Positions 2,632 to 9,921 of a stretch of 11,178 nt of DNA are shown here, one piece after another. Every line of letters begins with the position of its first letter. Positions within the stretch are counted from its first letter, which is position 1. Source of the DNA: Pseudobacteriovorax sp. (lineage in GTDB: Bacteria > Bdellovibrionota_B > Oligoflexia > Oligoflexales > Oligoflexaceae); the NCBI GenBank assembly GCA_050293845.1, contig JBNKNM010000187.1, positions 1 through 11,178 on the forward strand, given 5' to 3'. The notes under the pieces were generated by a model. The model had not been told where the DNA came from and did no database searches. It saw nothing but the letters and a program-made list of their open reading frames with translations. The translations under genes were made by a program, and so were the position numbers.

Positions 2632-3285
2632 ATGGGATCAAAGAAAGAGAAAAAACAAAACTATATAGTTATAGAAGATTCAAAAGAGCTTTTAAACAAA
2701 GTCCACATAAATATACTGAATTGCTATAAATGTAAATCTCAAGTTGGAGAAACCTTTCACAAGACAGATATTCACCATCGAGGAGATGCTGGACGGGTAG
2801 TGATTATAGGGCAGCAACCAGGAAAACAAGAAATCAAAAAAGGACTACCCTTTTCAGGGAAAACTGGTCAACGATTGGATTCCTGGCTTATTGAATGCGG
2901 AGCGAATCCTTTGCAACCGAGAGAAGGAATTTATACAACATCAATTGTCAAATGTTACGGAGGAAAAAAACATTTAAAATTGATGTCATCTAACTGTGAA
3001 AATTTTCTAAGTGAACAATTACGAATAATAAAGCCTGAGTTGATTATAACTCTTGGAAAGCATGCATTTTTTGCAATTGACGTGTCTAGGCAGACCTATG
3101 CAGAATCTCTGTGCAAGCTCTACCCAAGCAAAAATCACATACTCTTTACTAACTTTGGGTTTCATTATATTCACTTACCCTGGCCACATCCGAGTGGATT
3201 AAATAGGTGGCATAACAGCCCCAGCAATAAAAAACTTTTGACAGCAAGCTTTGAGTTTGTGAAAGAGTATCTAAATGTCTTATAG
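2632..3285 (+). CDS. Uracil-DNA glycosylase superfamily protein, family-4/5-like with probable 4Fe-4S cluster
   Basis: Motif A-like VVIIGQQPGKQE, followed by GLPFSGKTGQRLDSWL, IYTTSIVKC and LRIIKPELIITLG. Motif B is PHPSG. Four Cys (CYKC, VKC, SNC) are placed like Fe-S ligands. Confidence 0.9.
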   Translation: MGSKKEKKQNYIVIEDSKELLNKVHINILNCYKCKSQVGETFHKTDIHHRGDAGRVVIIGQQPGKQEIKKGLPFSGKTGQRLDSWLIECGANPLQPREGIYTTSIVKCYGGKKHLKLMSSNCENFLSEQLRIIKPELIITLGKHAFFAIDVSRQTYAESLCKLYPSKNHILFTNFGFHYIHLPWPHPSGLNRWHNSPSNKKLLTASFEFVKEYLNVL

Positions 3286-4066
3286 GAAAATTTGGATATC
3301 TTTGATCATAGTAGTAATACAAATTTTGATTGCATTTAGCCCATTAATCAAAATAGTCAATGATGTATTGAGTCCTGCAACTGACTATGCATCAATACGG
3401 GATCAGTTTATCATGATTATAGGCTTTCAGATCGCCTTAATGACTGGCTCAATTTCACTTGCTGGTAATATCCAAGCAGCCGCCTGCGAAAATGCGGTGG
3501 AACAGTTAAAAGCAAAGAACCGACAATTCGACACTATCGAAAAGATAAAAGATGTTGAGTTTTATCCTAAATTTCTTTCTCATGCAGAAACTGCAAAAGA
3601 CAGCGTTGACATATGTTATCTTGCTCCTTACCCTCCTGATGCCACCACCCACAGAGAAAGACACAAGTATTATCAAAAAATACTATCGCTTATGAAAAAA
3701 AACAATACAGTGAGATTTAGGAGAATTGTCAGATATAGTGAGAAGAATATTGCTTGGATAAAAAGTCTGTCAGCCGAATTGGCTAACATACCAAATTCAG
3801 ACCTGGCTATCCTTCATGATAGTGCCGATACAGAAAAAATGCCTCTTGCACTGTCGGTGCAGATCATTGACGATAACCACGTTTGGCTTGTTGCCGTAAA
3901 TGGCCATGAAAGAGAAGGATCGTACCGAGATGTTTATATCAGGAATACAGATTACGTCGAAGTAATGAAACACTACTACAATCGACTTTGGCGCCGTTCT
4001 GAAGTTCTCATAGACTCTGGAATGATTACAGAAAAGCTTACCGAGTTATTAGAGGTGAACAAATGA
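3275..4066 (+). CDS. Membrane-anchored protein with two N-terminal TM helices and a PLD-like (HKD-less) C-terminal domain
   Basis: Hydrophobic segments IWISLIIVVIQILIAF and FIMIIGFQIALMTGSISLA. The pattern AKDSVDICY...VRFRRIV...VQIIDDNHVWL...MKHYYNRLWRRS resembles PLD/TrmB-C-like folds, but no HxK motif is visible. Overlaps the upstream gene by 11 bp. Confidence 0.7.
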   Translation: MSYRKIWISLIIVVIQILIAFSPLIKIVNDVLSPATDYASIRDQFIMIIGFQIALMTGSISLAGNIQAAACENAVEQLKAKNRQFDTIEKIKDVEFYPKFLSHAETAKDSVDICYLAPYPPDATTHRERHKYYQKILSLMKKNNTVRFRRIVRYSEKNIAWIKSLSAELANIPNSDLAILHDSADTEKMPLALSVQIIDDNHVWLVAVNGHEREGSYRDVYIRNTDYVEVMKHYYNRLWRRSEVLIDSGMITEKLTELLEVNK

Positions 4067-4563
4067 TGACAATTGAAAATGAAACTTTTTTACTTCTGTC
4101 AATTCACGAGGTACATGCGAATCGAATTATGGACAGGCTTAAGAAATTCGAGCTTAGAAAACGCTTACCCAAAGAAAAATTTCATAAAGTGTTCCTGTAT
4201 CAAACCAAAGGTGAAGGACTTATTGGTGCATTTGGTGTAGGTGAGATACTTAAAATGACAATTTCTGAACTTTGGGATACAGTCGGGGAAGATGCCACAT
4301 CTAAAGAGAGGTTCGATGCGTACTTCGAAGGAAAGGTTATTGGCTGCGCTATAGAAGTAAAAAATCCAGTTAGGTTCAGGCTTTCTGCTGCTTCAAATGT
4401 AATCCAAAATTGTGTTAGTGAATTTACTGCTCCACAAAGTTTCAAAGTATCACGACCCGGGGATGACCTTCATCAATACTTATGTCTGAAATATCTGGAG
4501 GAGACAAAAAAAAAATCGTCAAGATCGAAGAAATCAAAGCCTCACAGCGATCTAAATTTGTAA
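4063..4563 (+). CDS. ASCH-domain (PUA-like) protein
   Basis: LLSIHEVHANRIMDRLKKFELRK...VFLYQT...LIGAF...APQSF matches the ASCH pattern (LSIxPxxxxxIxxGxKxxExR...PQSF). SD GAGGTG at 4052-4057 and ATGA overlap with the upstream gene. Confidence 0.85.
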   Translation: MMTIENETFLLLSIHEVHANRIMDRLKKFELRKRLPKEKFHKVFLYQTKGEGLIGAFGVGEILKMTISELWDTVGEDATSKERFDAYFEGKVIGCAIEVKNPVRFRLSAASNVIQNCVSEFTAPQSFKVSRPGDDLHQYLCLKYLEETKKKSSRSKKSKPHSDLNL

Positions 4564-5507
4564 ATATAGTAACTAATCAAATAGGGGCGAACTATACTGC
4601 AATTACGGAAAAATTTGCTAAACGTATTCTTGAAATACACGATTTGGGAAAAGATCCAAAAGGATACATGACTGTTTCGAAGAAATCTTTTTCAATTTAC
4701 GACAGCTCTAATTCCCATATTGGATACACTGTACTTACGTTTAAGCTGGGATCGACTGCGAAATCTGGCCCTACGATTTTATTCCCAAAATTTAGAAACT
4801 TAGGTTATGGTCAAGCCGTGCGCACAGCAGTTAACAATTATTGTAGTGAAAACGGAATAACTAAGATATATTGCACGGCGTCCTGCAATGACATACGTCT
4901 TATTCGATATTTGATTAAATCAGGAATGAGTATTGAGGCACATCTTAAGCGTCAATACTCACAATATAGGGATGAAATTGTCCTGGGTCAAATTCTCAGT
5001 CACGAACCAGTCTCCCCAAAAACTTATGAAAGAAAACGTGAAGCGTTTGAAATAGTAGAAAATAGTTTTTCTACAGAAGTCGTTTCCAACTTTTTAAATA
5101 GACTTTTTAGGAAAACTTTTTTCGAAGTTGATAATAGTTTTGGACATCGGCTTGTTGAAACATTTTCTCAAGTTGGAGCTTGCAATTACGAGGATAAAAA
5201 TAGATGGTTAATATTAGGGCAAAGGAATTCAAAAATTGGGGCTACGATAATACTGATTCCAAAACGCGGTGGTTCGGTCAAAGGAGTAATACTTTCTGAG
5301 TCATGCCACCCCTCCTCTCTTACAACCCTTATTCAAAAGGCTTTAAGTCACTGTAAATCTCAAAATCAATCCAAATTATATTTTTGTCACCCTTTTGATG
5401 ACATTCTAATTTTGCAGACTCTAATTAGTTTGGGTTTTGAGAATGAAGGGATACTTCGGTCACCCTCTTCCTCACACCAAATCATACTATCAAAATTCAT
5501 TCTGTAA
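4482..5507 (+). CDS. Tandem GNAT-family N-acetyltransferase (possibly expressed as an ASCH-GNAT-GNAT fusion)
   Basis: Acetyl-CoA motif A FPKFRNLGYG and YLIKSGMSIEAHL in domain 1. A second GNAT-like repeat has KLYF...TLISLGFENEGILR. No SD before ATG 4482, and an 82-bp overlap with the ASCH ORF. Confidence 0.8.
   Translation: MSEISGGDKKKIVKIEEIKASQRSKFVNIVTNQIGANYTAITEKFAKRILEIHDLGKDPKGYMTVSKKSFSIYDSSNSHIGYTVLTFKLGSTAKSGPTILFPKFRNLGYGQAVRTAVNNYCSENGITKIYCTASCNDIRLIRYLIKSGMSIEAHLKRQYSQYRDEIVLGQILSHEPVSPKTYERKREAFEIVENSFSTEVVSNFLNRLFRKTFFEVDNSFGHRLVETFSQVGACNYEDKNRWLILGQRNSKIGATIILIPKRGGSVKGVILSESCHPSSLTTLIQKALSHCKSQNQSKLYFCHPFDDILILQTLISLGFENEGILRSPSSSHQIILSKFIL
4506..4515 (+). repeat. A10 homopolymer at the ASCH/GNAT frame junction
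   Basis: gagac-AAAAAAAAAA-tcgtc. The GNAT frame is -1 relative to the ASCH frame and both frames are open across the tract. Confidence 0.9.
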
Positions 5508-5697
5508 GGAAAATCAGATAAGTTATCAATTAGAGCCAGTTAAATTACTCCATTATTCCTCTTCTCAGCAATGTCTGCTAGTGATTGGGTTTAAGATTCG
5601 ATTCGACACCTTTATTTATCGCATTTCTCGCCTGTTTACCAACAGGGATCTTAACAGTTTTGCTAAATTTTTATGTAGCTTAAATTTAATAGAAAGT

Positions 5698-5742
5698 GGG
5701 TCCTTCTAAACACCTATGTCGAACGGGGGGGATCTCTGCCCG
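5698..5742 (+). other. Candidate lambda-type cos site (cosQ + cosN)
   Basis: GGGTCCT (5698-5704) is identical to lambda cosQ. It is followed 21 nt later, after ACG, by GGGGGGATCTCT (5726-5737), 7/12 identical to the lambda cohesive end GGGCGGCGACCT, which is also preceded by ACG. It lies about 260 bp upstream of terS. Confidence 0.55.
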
Positions 5743-5750
5743 CTTTTTTT
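5724..5750 (+). terminator. Possible weak intrinsic terminator after the four-gene operon (overlaps cos candidate)
   Basis: Imperfect stem CGGG...CCCG followed by C and T7. The dyad could instead reflect cosN symmetry. Confidence 0.35.
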
Positions 5751-5925
5751 ACCTGTCAGCTCTGATAGGGGGCAACAACAATCCCATTATGACTTATATG
5801 AGTTTCATTTAAGTAACCCACTTAATATATTAATAATAATTTTCAGAAAATGGAAATAGTCTGTACTTTTGACTCTCCCTCGATTGACTTTTCGCCTTTA
5901 ATTTAACGCAAATCTAGTCGTAAAC

Positions 5926-8343: not shown

Positions 8344-8512
8344 CTCTTTTCAGCCCAGTAAAGTCTACCTCTTGATTTACCCAAGGTAAACACCGTCAAA
8401 CTGTCCATAGATTTTAAAAACTTCCCTATTCTGGGCTTATTGGAAAATAGGTCCTATTTATTTAAGCGCATCCGCTATTACGCGAAAGTAATGCTTAGGG
8501 TTGATATGATGT

Positions 8513-8539
8513 TAAATTTTTTACCTCCTTCTCCGATGT
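8513..8539 (+). promoter_or_regulatory. Putative sigma-28 (FliA-type) promoter
   Basis: TAAATTTT-N11-TCCGATGT, with the same spacing as 229-255. It ends 32 nt upstream of ATG 8572. Confidence 0.55.
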
Positions 8540-8571
8540 TTAAATGTATTCTTTTAGAGAAGGGTATTGTA

Positions 8572-9921
8572 ATGATAAGCAAAAAATTAATGGTGTTCTG
8601 CACATTTTATGCAGTAATAGCTGCAAGTTGTGGTAAAGACGAAGAAGAATCCCTTGGAACACTAAAACTATCAATGACAACGACTGGTCAACCGAGTTCA
8701 TCGTTGAAGTTAGCCTCAGCCAATGATTTTTTAAACTCATCCATTGCATCGGGGGCCCCCGATTCTATGACGCTCTATATTAAGCGCATTTCGTTAAAAG
8801 AAACCGATGAAGGTGCTCCGTTTCCTATTTTTTATGAGGAGTCAGGTAAACCCATTAAAGTTTCTGCTGGTAAAATAGATATAAGTCAACTTTTTACCTT
8901 GTATGAATGTATTGGCAGCGCTGGAGTTCCTGTGGAAGGAGTAGGGGAATGTCCCTGTGGACTTGATGAGGATGACAAGCCGGTCGCAAGCAATAGCGAT
9001 GGTACTTGCCCTGAGGGTGAAGGTACGAATGCAGTGGCTATAGCTGATGCCCAAGAAGGGTCGTTCAAGTATCTTGAAATGGAATTATTGATGCGTGGTA
9101 CCATTAAGGGTTGTGTCACGGGAAATTTCCAAGGGGGCGATCAATCAAATAGTGCAGCAACCCAGGGAGAGCATACCTATTGTACACAGGAGTCGCTACA
9201 CACCTTTCAGGATTCCCAGGGGGCTGCTTCAGCTAGCGATTTCGAAAATGTTTCTGCAGAAGATATGAAGTTTCAAATCTCTCTAGGTAACGAGTTGATC
9301 TCTGATGAAACAGCCACAACAACTCTCAACATACCGTTAACTGAAGAAATAACCATTTCAGGTGATAGCTCACCGACAATGACGATGGTTATTGACACCA
9401 ACCGTATGCTAAGGTTCTATAATAAGAACTTCGAGCAAAGTATTAATCCAGGAGTGCCCAAGGATCGTGCATTCTTTTTTAATACTGTATTTGATTACTC
9501 CACTTTCGCTTTTGTCGGCAGTCCTGGAGATATTCGTGGCTTTCAATGGTGGACAGAAGCCTGTTCAGGTACGGTAACTAACGATCGACTCTGTACCTCA
9601 GGTTCAAATGTACAAACCGTTGCAGGATGGGTTACAGTTGTCAAAGGTAGCGATGACAAACCTTTGGTCGTAGGTTTTATGCCAGATGATGATAACTCAT
9701 GGACTATCATTAAAGGATCAAACAAGTCTGCAAGTGGCTTAGATCCAGATGCCTTTACATCTTCTGGATCAGCCTATGATATCGGCTTTCAGTTAGGAAC
9801 CGATGGATCTGGGGTGATCTACGGTTTAGAGCTTGATAATGACCTGGGAACTATCCAAGAGTCGACTTTCGAAGGTTTGCAAGACTCCTATGGAAAGATC
9901 TACCTAGATCGCAAACTTTAG
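8572..9921 (+). CDS. Acidic, Cys-rich lipoprotein of unknown function (449 aa), moron-like insert between terL and gpW
   Basis: The start is reassigned from 8440 to ATG 8572 (SD-like GAGAAGGG at 8557-8564). This gives signal peptide II MISKKLMVFCTFYAVIAAS-C. Multiple Cys and beta-rich segments. Confidence 0.85.
   Translation: MISKKLMVFCTFYAVIAASCGKDEEESLGTLKLSMTTTGQPSSSLKLASANDFLNSSIASGAPDSMTLYIKRISLKETDEGAPFPIFYEESGKPIKVSAGKIDISQLFTLYECIGSAGVPVEGVGECPCGLDEDDKPVASNSDGTCPEGEGTNAVAIADAQEGSFKYLEMELLMRGTIKGCVTGNFQGGDQSNSAATQGEHTYCTQESLHTFQDSQGAASASDFENVSAEDMKFQISLGNELISDETATTTLNIPLTEEITISGDSSPTMTMVIDTNRMLRFYNKNFEQSINPGVPKDRAFFFNTVFDYSTFAFVGSPGDIRGFQWWTEACSGTVTNDRLCTSGSNVQTVAGWVTVVKGSDDKPLVVGFMPDDDNSWTIIKGSNKSASGLDPDAFTSSGSAYDIGFQLGTDGSGVIYGLELDNDLGTIQESTFEGLQDSYGKIYLDRKL

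Follow-up and report, generated by a model that had tools for sequence, protein, structure and literature searches.

Three linked genes in a contig of Pseudobacteriovorax sp. (JBNKNM010000187.1) encode a protein resembling uracil-DNA glycosylases (UDGs), a membrane protein with a predicted phospholipase D (PLD) fold, and a fusion of an ASCH domain to tandem GNAT domains. The window we analyzed is the entire contig (C187, 11,178 bp), one of 741 in a 6.68-Mb genome that is 96% complete. The cassette formed by these genes is real, conserved and undescribed, and we infer its mechanism.

The conservation is seen in relatives of the middle gene, gene 2. Patterns in gene 2 alone were used to fetch 31 loci, comprising 26 from metagenomes, three from metagenome-assembled genomes (MAGs) of Acidobacteriota/Terriglobales, and two of a distant subfamily at ~32% identity (a Zoogloea MAG and a Terrimicrobiaceae MAG). 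At ≥95% nucleotide identity these loci fall into 25 groups. A UDG homologue is encoded directly upstream of gene 2 in 27 of the 28 loci that have at least 500 bp of sequence there. The exception is locus L024, in which a transposase cuts into gene 2. Directly downstream of gene 2, an ASCH and/or GNAT gene is found in 28/28 loci with at least 300 bp on that side. The junctions in relatives are typically overlapping, and the G+C content of the loci ranges from 37% to 62%. Linkage of the three genes, with their base-directed domains, is strict and extends across at least four phylum-level lineages. A first-pass annotation of this DNA had proposed a new system and had named a lack of co-occurrence of its genes as one finding that would refute the proposal; this test does not refute it, as the genes keep the same order in the relatives counted above.

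In the window, the cassette occupies four open reading frames (ORFs) on the + strand, at 2632-3285, 3275-4066, 4063-4563 and 4482-5507, which overlap by 11, 4 (ATGA) and 82 bp. Their G+C content is 36.9%, against 41.2% for the genome, 43.3% for the left flank and 42.6% for the downstream packaging module, and they are set apart by 733 bp of non-coding DNA upstream and 426 bp downstream, the latter separating the cassette from terS. The co-orientation, overlaps, AT-richness and isolation that had first been noted were all confirmed. The count of four genes was not, as the third and fourth ORFs are one gene split by a frameshift in an A10 tract.

The three proteins of the cassette

Gene 1 (2632-3285, + strand) encodes a 217-aa UDG-superfamily protein resembling family 4. 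It matches Pfam PF03167 at 1.7e-25 (90.2 bits, cut-off 24.3), and the copies from the distant-subfamily cassettes match the same family at 3e-18 and 5e-22. The nearest solved relatives are the family-4 UDGs 1UI0, 4ZBX and 1VK2, at ~1e-12 by sequence and 3e-19 with a profile, in keeping with the UDG-like glycosylase family first assigned. Existing subfamily models fit less well. The NCBIfam family-4 models match gene 1 far under their cut-offs (TIGR00758, 60.3 vs 125.3; NF040953, 71.8 vs 250), and the UdgX model scores 55.2 against a cut-off of 189.95.

We compared the motifs of gene 1 over 21 aligned cassette copies. The four cysteines of family-4 UDGs are the ligands of a 4Fe-4S cluster. Cysteines C31, C34, C108 and C122 of gene 1 are invariant in 16 cassette copies and are also present in L125 and L126, so that at the level of the motif gene 1 carries the predicted cysteines of an Fe-S type cluster. 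Motif B reads PHPSGLNRW, and its PHPSG-NR is invariant in the 16 copies. Motif A differs from that of family-4 UDGs, which is GE(A/G)PG with a Glu. This motif is visible in the 1UI0 and 4ZBX alignments, and its Glu is absent from gene 1. The window copy has GQQPG, the clade has GQ(G/A/Q/E/S)PG, and GIAPG and GVAPG are found in L023 and L125, respectively. Gene 1 belongs to a distinct family-4-like UDG clade.

Gene 2 (3275-4066, + strand) encodes a 263-aa protein with no family match in Pfam, PHROG, NCBIfam or PADLOC. An AlphaFold (AF2) model built from a 23-sequence alignment (predicted local distance difference test, pLDDT, 82.1) places two hydrophobic N-terminal helices ahead of an alpha/beta domain predicted to be cytoplasmic. 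Foldseek matched the model to NucT (3.2e-8) and Nuc (4.8e-6), and also to PLD3/4, Zucchini, FAM83 and TrmB, with E values from 3e-8 to 1e-5 for the PLD-fold matches and template modelling (TM) scores by target of up to 0.67. The model thus argues that the soluble domain has a PLD fold, as the original description of a two-helix, PLD-like membrane protein had it. The effector role attached to that description fared worse. The HxK(x)4D (HKD) motif is missing from the window protein and is seen in only 2 of 127 full-length family members, at unrelated positions. An active PLD nuclease effector is ruled out for a domain without HKD, and gene 2 is no obvious lytic effector. What the 127 members conserve instead is S194-x-Q196-x-x-D199, R218-D219, R150, R153, Y132 and several aromatic residues. 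The family is large, as a profile search of 1.84 billion representatives returned 508 clusters (50% identity) at E ≤1e-3 and 122 at ≤1e-30, nearly all of them 250-270 aa in length. Gene 2 of the window also holds a homopolymer, A8, in frame at 3695-3702, the second in the cassette after the A10 tract of gene 3.

Gene 3 is divided between two ORFs in the window. The 5′ piece (4063-4563, + strand) encodes the ASCH domain (residues ~5-145) followed by a tail of ~17 aa that is out of frame past the A-tract, and the 3′ piece (4482-5507, + strand) encodes the tandem GNAT. Three-frame translations place the change of reading frame at the A10 homopolymer in the ASCH/GNAT linker (4506-4515). ORF3 reads ...EETKKK and then runs into the unrelated tail, and the ORF4 frame reads ...GDKKKIVKIEEIK, continuing the linker of the homologues. 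In a search of 5.8 billion proteins, 28 of 31 non-self homologues of ORF4 were 481-522 aa long, and 14 complete relatives carry a single ASCH-GNAT ORF of 483-519 aa. In the 501-aa homologue P0002, residues 21-161 align with ORF3 (40% identity) and residues 169-499 with ORF4 (37%). The frame change therefore lies inside the A10 of one ancestral gene; the 82-bp overlap is no gene junction, and the cassette has three genes rather than four. A tract of A11 or A8, or a -1 slip, would yield a single ORF of ~490 aa. The A10 tract was found in contigs of the public runs X1 and X2 (8.9x and 14.5x), from which this DNA may derive, and an A9 tract in one 3.5x contig of run X4, a third sample, so tract length varies. 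A/T runs of at least 10 are few, with only 21 in the 6.68-Mb genome. The run fits A_AAA_AAA, but a programmed -1 frameshift was unsupported because no downstream structure was found.

The ASCH assignment of ORF3 comes from several directions. It matches the PADLOC PDC-M11B models (9e-24 and 2e-23), phrog_3136 (2.3e-22) and, by sequence, ZmASCH of Zymomonas (5GUS/5GUQ, E 6e-4). The Pfam ASCH profile (PF04266) was unmatched even at E up to 10. In a model of the homologue P0002 (pLDDT 89.1), the ASCH part resembles 5GUQ/5Y6B (E 3e-10, TM by target 0.78-0.84, root mean square deviation ~2.1), and the tandem GNAT part resembles the tandem GNAT 2WPW, SpeG and RimL. Both domain calls of the first-pass annotation, ASCH and tandem GNAT, are upheld by these matches. 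ORF4 itself scores under the cut-off of Pfam Acetyltransf_1 (E 0.028; 15.1 bits against 20.7). Its first GNAT has an intact R-x-x-G-x-G acetyl-CoA motif (RNLGYG, R105-G110). Over 39 fusions the Arg of this motif is kept in 33 and replaced by Gln in 5, and the two Gly are kept in 36 and 38. The second GNAT lacks R-x-x-G-x-G and has an invariant K-R-G-G-x-x-K instead. GNAT-1 is thus predicted to be acetyl-CoA-competent and GNAT-2 degenerate.

ASCH-GNAT fusions are common in the ESM Atlas, where nearby clusters carry PF04266 in 24-99% of their members, which is a lead only. One relative, L003 (7845-8819), has a tandem GNAT without ASCH directly after gene 2, a natural ASCH-less form.

A physical connection between the second and third proteins is hinted at by complex prediction. 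For the proteins of L012, the soluble domain of gene 2 with the other chains scored 0.41 (runs 0.23, 0.46 and 0.41), against 0.00 for the best control. Of 157 solved complexes, 116 reach the mark used for such predictions, as do 2 of 215 mismatches, and a score of 0.60 or less while passing is seen in only 18 of the 157 solved complexes and in both passing mismatches. The runs share at least 69% of contacts, partner pLDDT is at least 74, and replacing the ASCH-GNAT chain lowered the score to 0.00. These predictions weakly support binding of the gene 2 soluble domain to ASCH-GNAT. A database protein, P0039, has the gene 2 soluble domain fused to ASCH-GNAT. We give it little weight, as it is a single truncated record and a possible read-through or gene-calling artefact.

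Distribution and the phage packaging setting

The cassette is sporadic, laterally spread and mobile. Among 131 genomes from the phylum of the host, the gene 2 family was found in the host alone, and among 401 genomes sampled from the order to which the Acidobacteriota carrier G131 belongs it was found in one. Relatives of ORF4 occur in one of 41 related genomes, again the host only, and a search of genome contigs with ORF4 alone found no related loci. The host rpoB shares 55-64% identity with the rpoB of MAGs from Myxococcota, Bdellovibrionota and other 'delta'-type groups and from alphaproteobacteria, which places the carrier of the window in a different phylum from the named carriers. Integrases, a resolvase or transposases lie near L017, L020, L021, L022, L024 and L125.

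We scanned the flanks of 19 loci, comparing 105 ORFs with Pfam and 84 with PADLOC. Beyond the trio there is no constant neighbour. A clear defence island surrounds one group, L016-L019, and comprises a type I restriction enzyme, PycC and PycTIR of Pycsar, PDC-S05 and AbiEi. In L017 (1722-6533 and 10087-11769), as in L016, L018 and L019, the cassette adjoins PycC (1e-77) and PycTIR (2e-103); the L017 island also holds a type I restriction subunit fragment, a DDE transposase, a RhuM/PDC-S05 gene and an AbiEi-like gene. Weaker hints of defence are a Fic/SoFic-like gene in L028 and an HD, dGTPase-like gene (2.4e-8) in L008. Apart from a ribonucleotide reductase gene and polA, considered below, the other flanks are ordinary metabolic genes.

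In the window, the cassette is followed by genes for phage DNA packaging. These are terS (PHROG 57, 1.1e-16) and terL, the latter with gpA ATPase and nuclease parts matched at ~2e-87 each, then an unannotated 493-aa ORF, a head-tail joining protein and a lambda-type portal. The first-pass annotation had placed the cassette beside a prophage packaging locus. The locus itself stands, as terS, terL and portal were all matched; its link to the cassette is less secure, running through a repeat at which assemblies branch.

That repeat (5697-5900) lies between the cassette and terS, is common to sibling phage-like elements, and recurs on C215 (92% over 204 nt), C4 (89% over 82 nt) and C327 (100% over 40 nt). 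Assemblies of the public runs diverge at it, with loose ends and several left-hand continuations at 5693-5790, and depth jumps there from ~9-15x to 25-69x. Such branching is consistent with a site whose cargo varies. Within the repeat are a G7 run and a hairpin resembling a terminator (5724-5738). On a sibling prophage copy on C4 whose terL is 95% identical (L037, 7650-9563, - strand), a gene for an OLD/AriA/GajA-like AAA_15 ATPase-TOPRIM protein sits between the repeat and terS, placing a known defence-type gene near the same site.

Related packaging modules are plentiful in this genome. A terL 95% identical to that of the window is found on C4, C463 and C322, another at 80% on C4 again, and one at 52% on C25. 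Lambda-type terS/terL/portal modules at 52-95% protein identity were noted on C4 (two copies), C463, C322, C206, C219, C25, C215, C327 and C382. Their number indicates a resident phage family and probably explains part of the fragmentation into 741 contigs. On C215 (L036, 726-6263), a terS copy 92% identical to that of the window is followed by a solute-binding protein, a histidine kinase and a sigma-54 response regulator, with no terL, and this arrangement is either a remnant prophage end or a misjoin. The 493-aa ORF of the window (8440-9921, + strand), between terL and the head-tail joining gene, matched no family in Pfam, PHROGs, NCBIfam or PADLOC. In a sibling C4 module only ~250 bp separate terL from the next gene, so this ORF has the appearance of further cargo, a second gene inserted into the module.

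To the left of the cassette nothing is recognisably phage. The adjoining 733-bp stretch (1899-2631) is AT-rich (~32-35% G+C) and has no ORFs of at least 50 aa, no Rfam families or tRNA, and no notable repeats; att-like repeats flanking the cassette were likewise not found. Promoter-like sites were no more frequent here than in shuffled sequence, with no excess in the promoter/terminator scan, and the stretch presumably holds the cassette promoter. Further left is a 448-aa ORF (285-1631, + strand) whose N-terminus resembles that of a lipoprotein (…LVLSC) and whose start is acidic and rich in Gly. It matched no family and has a paralogue at 46% identity on C274. Positions 1-194 match C209 (L039, 2492-2725) at 97% and carry a transposase-like fragment (phrog_151, 2e-6). 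This fragment, common to both contigs, indicates that the window contig ends in an insertion-sequence repeat.

Possible roles of the cassette

We tentatively read the cassette as a mobile modify-and-excise module acting against modified nucleobases, probably those of invading DNA, and our confidence in this defence reading falls a little short of even. Its roles are assigned by analogy with the Brig3-BapA operon. The ASCH domain would read a flipped-out unusual base in DNA, and the attached GNAT would N-acylate that base; an exocyclic or side-chain amine on a hypermodified phage base is one example of a site. Excision of the altered base by the UDG-like enzyme would then leave abasic sites, at which the invader could no longer replicate. 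The PLD-fold protein may tether ASCH-GNAT at the inner membrane face, or bind nucleic acid or a ligand there. The window cassette would be an accessory ('moron') set beside the lambda-type packaging module of a multi-copy prophage family, and restoring its gene 3 to full length would require an A11 or A8 allele, or transcriptional or ribosomal slippage on A10. In favour of this reading are the accessory, mobile character of the cassette, the defence island around L016-L019, the OLD/GajA-like gene of the C4 sibling, the cysteines, motif B and GNAT-1 motif that are kept, and the predicted contact between the second and third proteins.

A number of observations weigh against this reading. Gln, Val or Ile replaces the motif-A Glu in gene 1, so its glycosylase activity is not assured. 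The PLD-fold domain lacks HKD, and solved tandem GNATs mostly acylate small molecules or proteins. The window copy is frameshifted, both tract lengths seen (A10 and A9) are out of frame, and there is no stable RNA structure 3′ of the A10 tract (z = 0.36). The connection from the cassette to the packaging genes passes through the branching repeat. Clear defence neighbours are found in only one of the 25 distinct locus groups; the writer, reader, eraser and effector roles and the defence function first proposed for the set are unsupported as originally written. Finally, the cassette has no DNA or protein match among 50,697 INPHARED phage records, and none in IMG/VR in a pattern-limited search with the queries used.

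A more specific form of the defence reading, in which the cassette itself makes the lesion, seems to us distinctly unlikely. Here ASCH-GNAT would N-acylate bases of incoming DNA, the Fe-S UDG-like enzyme would excise only the acylated base, the PLD-fold protein would hold the complex at the membrane where phage DNA enters, and the A-tract would be a slippage-prone on/off switch. The acylated targets could be hypermodified bases with free amines, or normal bases in a host-protected context.

Among the alternatives, an accessory module for DNA repair or nucleotide hygiene is unlikely. The UDG would remove uracil or a damaged or acylated base, ASCH-GNAT would handle N-acyl-cytosine adducts or nucleosides in the manner of YqfB and EOLA1, the PLD-fold protein would be a membrane scaffold, and phage adjacency would be incidental. 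In 6 of the 31 loci (L002, L012, L014, L028, L029 and L030) the cassette lies directly downstream of, and co-oriented with, nrdJ for a class II B12-dependent ribonucleotide reductase (TSCPD domain), which ends 41-568 bp before the UDG-like gene, and in L020 polA lies 1.2 kb downstream of the cassette. These loci fit a repair or nucleotide-metabolism role and count against defence. The nearest solved relatives of gene 1 are moreover repair UDGs, and ASCH enzymes deacetylate free N4-acetylcytidine (ac4C), as reported in the EOLA1 preprint. Among the nrdJ-linked cassettes gene 2 is 43% to 77% identical to the L012 copy. Those with a named organism are all Acidobacteriota/Terriglobales MAGs, so the linkage could reflect the insertion site of one lineage. 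A repair function would be expected to be widely retained, yet the family is found in one genome of 401 in the same order and one of 131 in the host's phylum, flanks vary by locus and often include transposases or integrases, and G+C departs from that of the host. Less likely still, and quite improbable, is a self-modification (anti-restriction) module of mobile elements, in which ASCH-GNAT would acylate the element's own DNA (as in Mom-type or thymidine hypermodification) and the UDG-like protein would be a base-exchange, proof-reading or modification-dependent partner. The window cassette does adjoin prophage packaging genes, acetyltransferases act in phage thymidine hypermodification (PMC8989533), and GNAT/TGT-based DNA marking has been proposed for BREX-related systems. 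Most carriers, however, are chromosomal loci without phage genes, the phage collection and IMG/VR gave no match with the queries used, the cassette comes without a kinase, a hydroxymethylase or any other enzyme of hypermodification, and a membrane anchor is unexpected in a replication-coupled modifier. A toxin-antitoxin or abortive-infection module is the least probable and hardly to be expected. In it a GNAT toxin would, for example, acetylate aminoacyl-tRNA, ASCH would target RNA, and the other two proteins would be a regulator and a membrane effector. Bell et al. 2020 (PMC7641849) describe GNAT toxins and (PIN)-GNAT-EVE operons with ASCH as putative toxin-antitoxin systems that have a link to restriction systems, and ZmASCH is an RNase. 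Against this, neither a small antitoxin-like gene nor a DNA-binding regulator recurs with the set, the GNAT is tandem, unlike single-domain toxins, and having a DNA glycosylase-type protein as constant partner suggests that DNA is the target.

A separate question concerns the window copy only, which may be a decaying, non-functional remnant whose frameshift is an inactivating mutation rather than a switch or programmed slip. This is possible, if rather doubtful. The A10 of X1 and X2 and the A9 of X4 are both out of frame, with no stimulatory structure downstream, and other copies (L024, L027 and L028) are frameshifted, truncated or otherwise decayed. Yet both pieces keep long frames with no further stops and all conserved motifs intact, and the ASCH ORF is complete alone. 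The relative L003 is a natural case of a cassette without ASCH. Runs of at least 9 A are known to cause transcriptional slippage, by which some full-length product would be made here.

Relation to known systems

Hossain et al. 2024 is reportedly the source for the Brig defence DNA glycosylases. Brig1, Brig2 and Brig3 are UDG-superfamily glycosylases that defend by excision of modified phage bases, and the brig3 gene overlaps bapA. The BapA protein, which is of ASCH-type fold, removes glucose from glucosylated 5-hydroxymethylcytosine (glc-5hmC) and thereby enables Brig3 to act (Mejia-Pitta et al., bioRxiv 10.64898/2026.02.25.707755; bioRxiv 10.1101/2025.10.29.685425). Brig3-BapA is the closest published precedent for the cassette. 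In both, a UDG-superfamily glycosylase gene is paired with a gene for an ASCH-fold protein; both are of soil origin, with mobile, AT-rich genes. The differences are that the cassette glycosylase is family-4-like with predicted Fe-S cysteines and that a third gene, for a membrane PLD-fold protein, lies between the two. Among PDB sequence matches of gene 1 (E up to 1) there were no Brig-named entries.

PADLOC run on the locus gave no named system, in line with the first-pass annotation, which had not recognised the combination as one. Only the ASCH part matched, to PDC-M11B of the candidate PDC-M11, and the other component, PDC-M11A (501 positions), is unmatched in the 96% complete host genome. 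No PADLOC model was hit by the UDG-like, PLD-fold or GNAT protein, even with the E threshold relaxed to 10. A trio of UDG, PLD-fold and ASCH-GNAT proteins was not described in the literature searched. Iyer et al. 2013 reportedly treats (PIN)-GNAT-EVE operons with a separate ASCH protein. Such operons resemble the cassette in pairing GNAT with PUA-like readers of modified bases in conflict-type loci, with base acetylation proposed (Bell, Wolf & Koonin 2020, PMC7641849). The cassette has no EVE, PIN or AAA_17, its ASCH is N-terminal to a tandem GNAT, and its UDG-like and PLD-fold partners are constant.

At the level of single proteins, gene 1 shares the C-x2-C...C...C pattern and HPS motif B with UdgX and with the family-4 UDGs of Thermus (1UI0), Sulfolobus (4ZBX) and Thermotoga (1VK2). 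Unlike the family-4 enzymes, it has a GQxPG, GVAPG or GIAPG motif A and sub-cut-off scores, and it is always encoded with two partner genes. Gene 2 shares its predicted fold with HKD-less PLD-fold domains (FAM83 DUF1669 and the sugar-binding domain of TrmB) as well as with the PLD nucleases Nuc, NucT, Zucchini and PLD3/4. It differs from the nucleases in lacking HxK(x)4D, in having its own S-x-Q-x-x-D and R-D, in its two-helix anchor, and in belonging to no Pfam family.

If the defence reading is true, glycosylase-based immunity (Brig, Dag) would gain a three-component form in which an acyl-transferase, not a hydrolase, readies the base for excision. The widespread unannotated membrane PLD-fold family, with its 508 clusters, would have its first role, and the cassette would make it possible to test whether enzymes N-acylate DNA bases in bacteria. 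Even with a role in repair, a trio so strictly linked over at least four phylum-level lineages would be an undescribed pathway. A glycosylase with an ASCH-fold helper is an already known defence design, and the parts of the cassette come from known superfamilies. What would set the cassette apart is an Fe-S family-4-like glycosylase clade, the substitution of a transferase for a hydrolase, and an obligate third partner from a membrane PLD-fold family that is large and unannotated.

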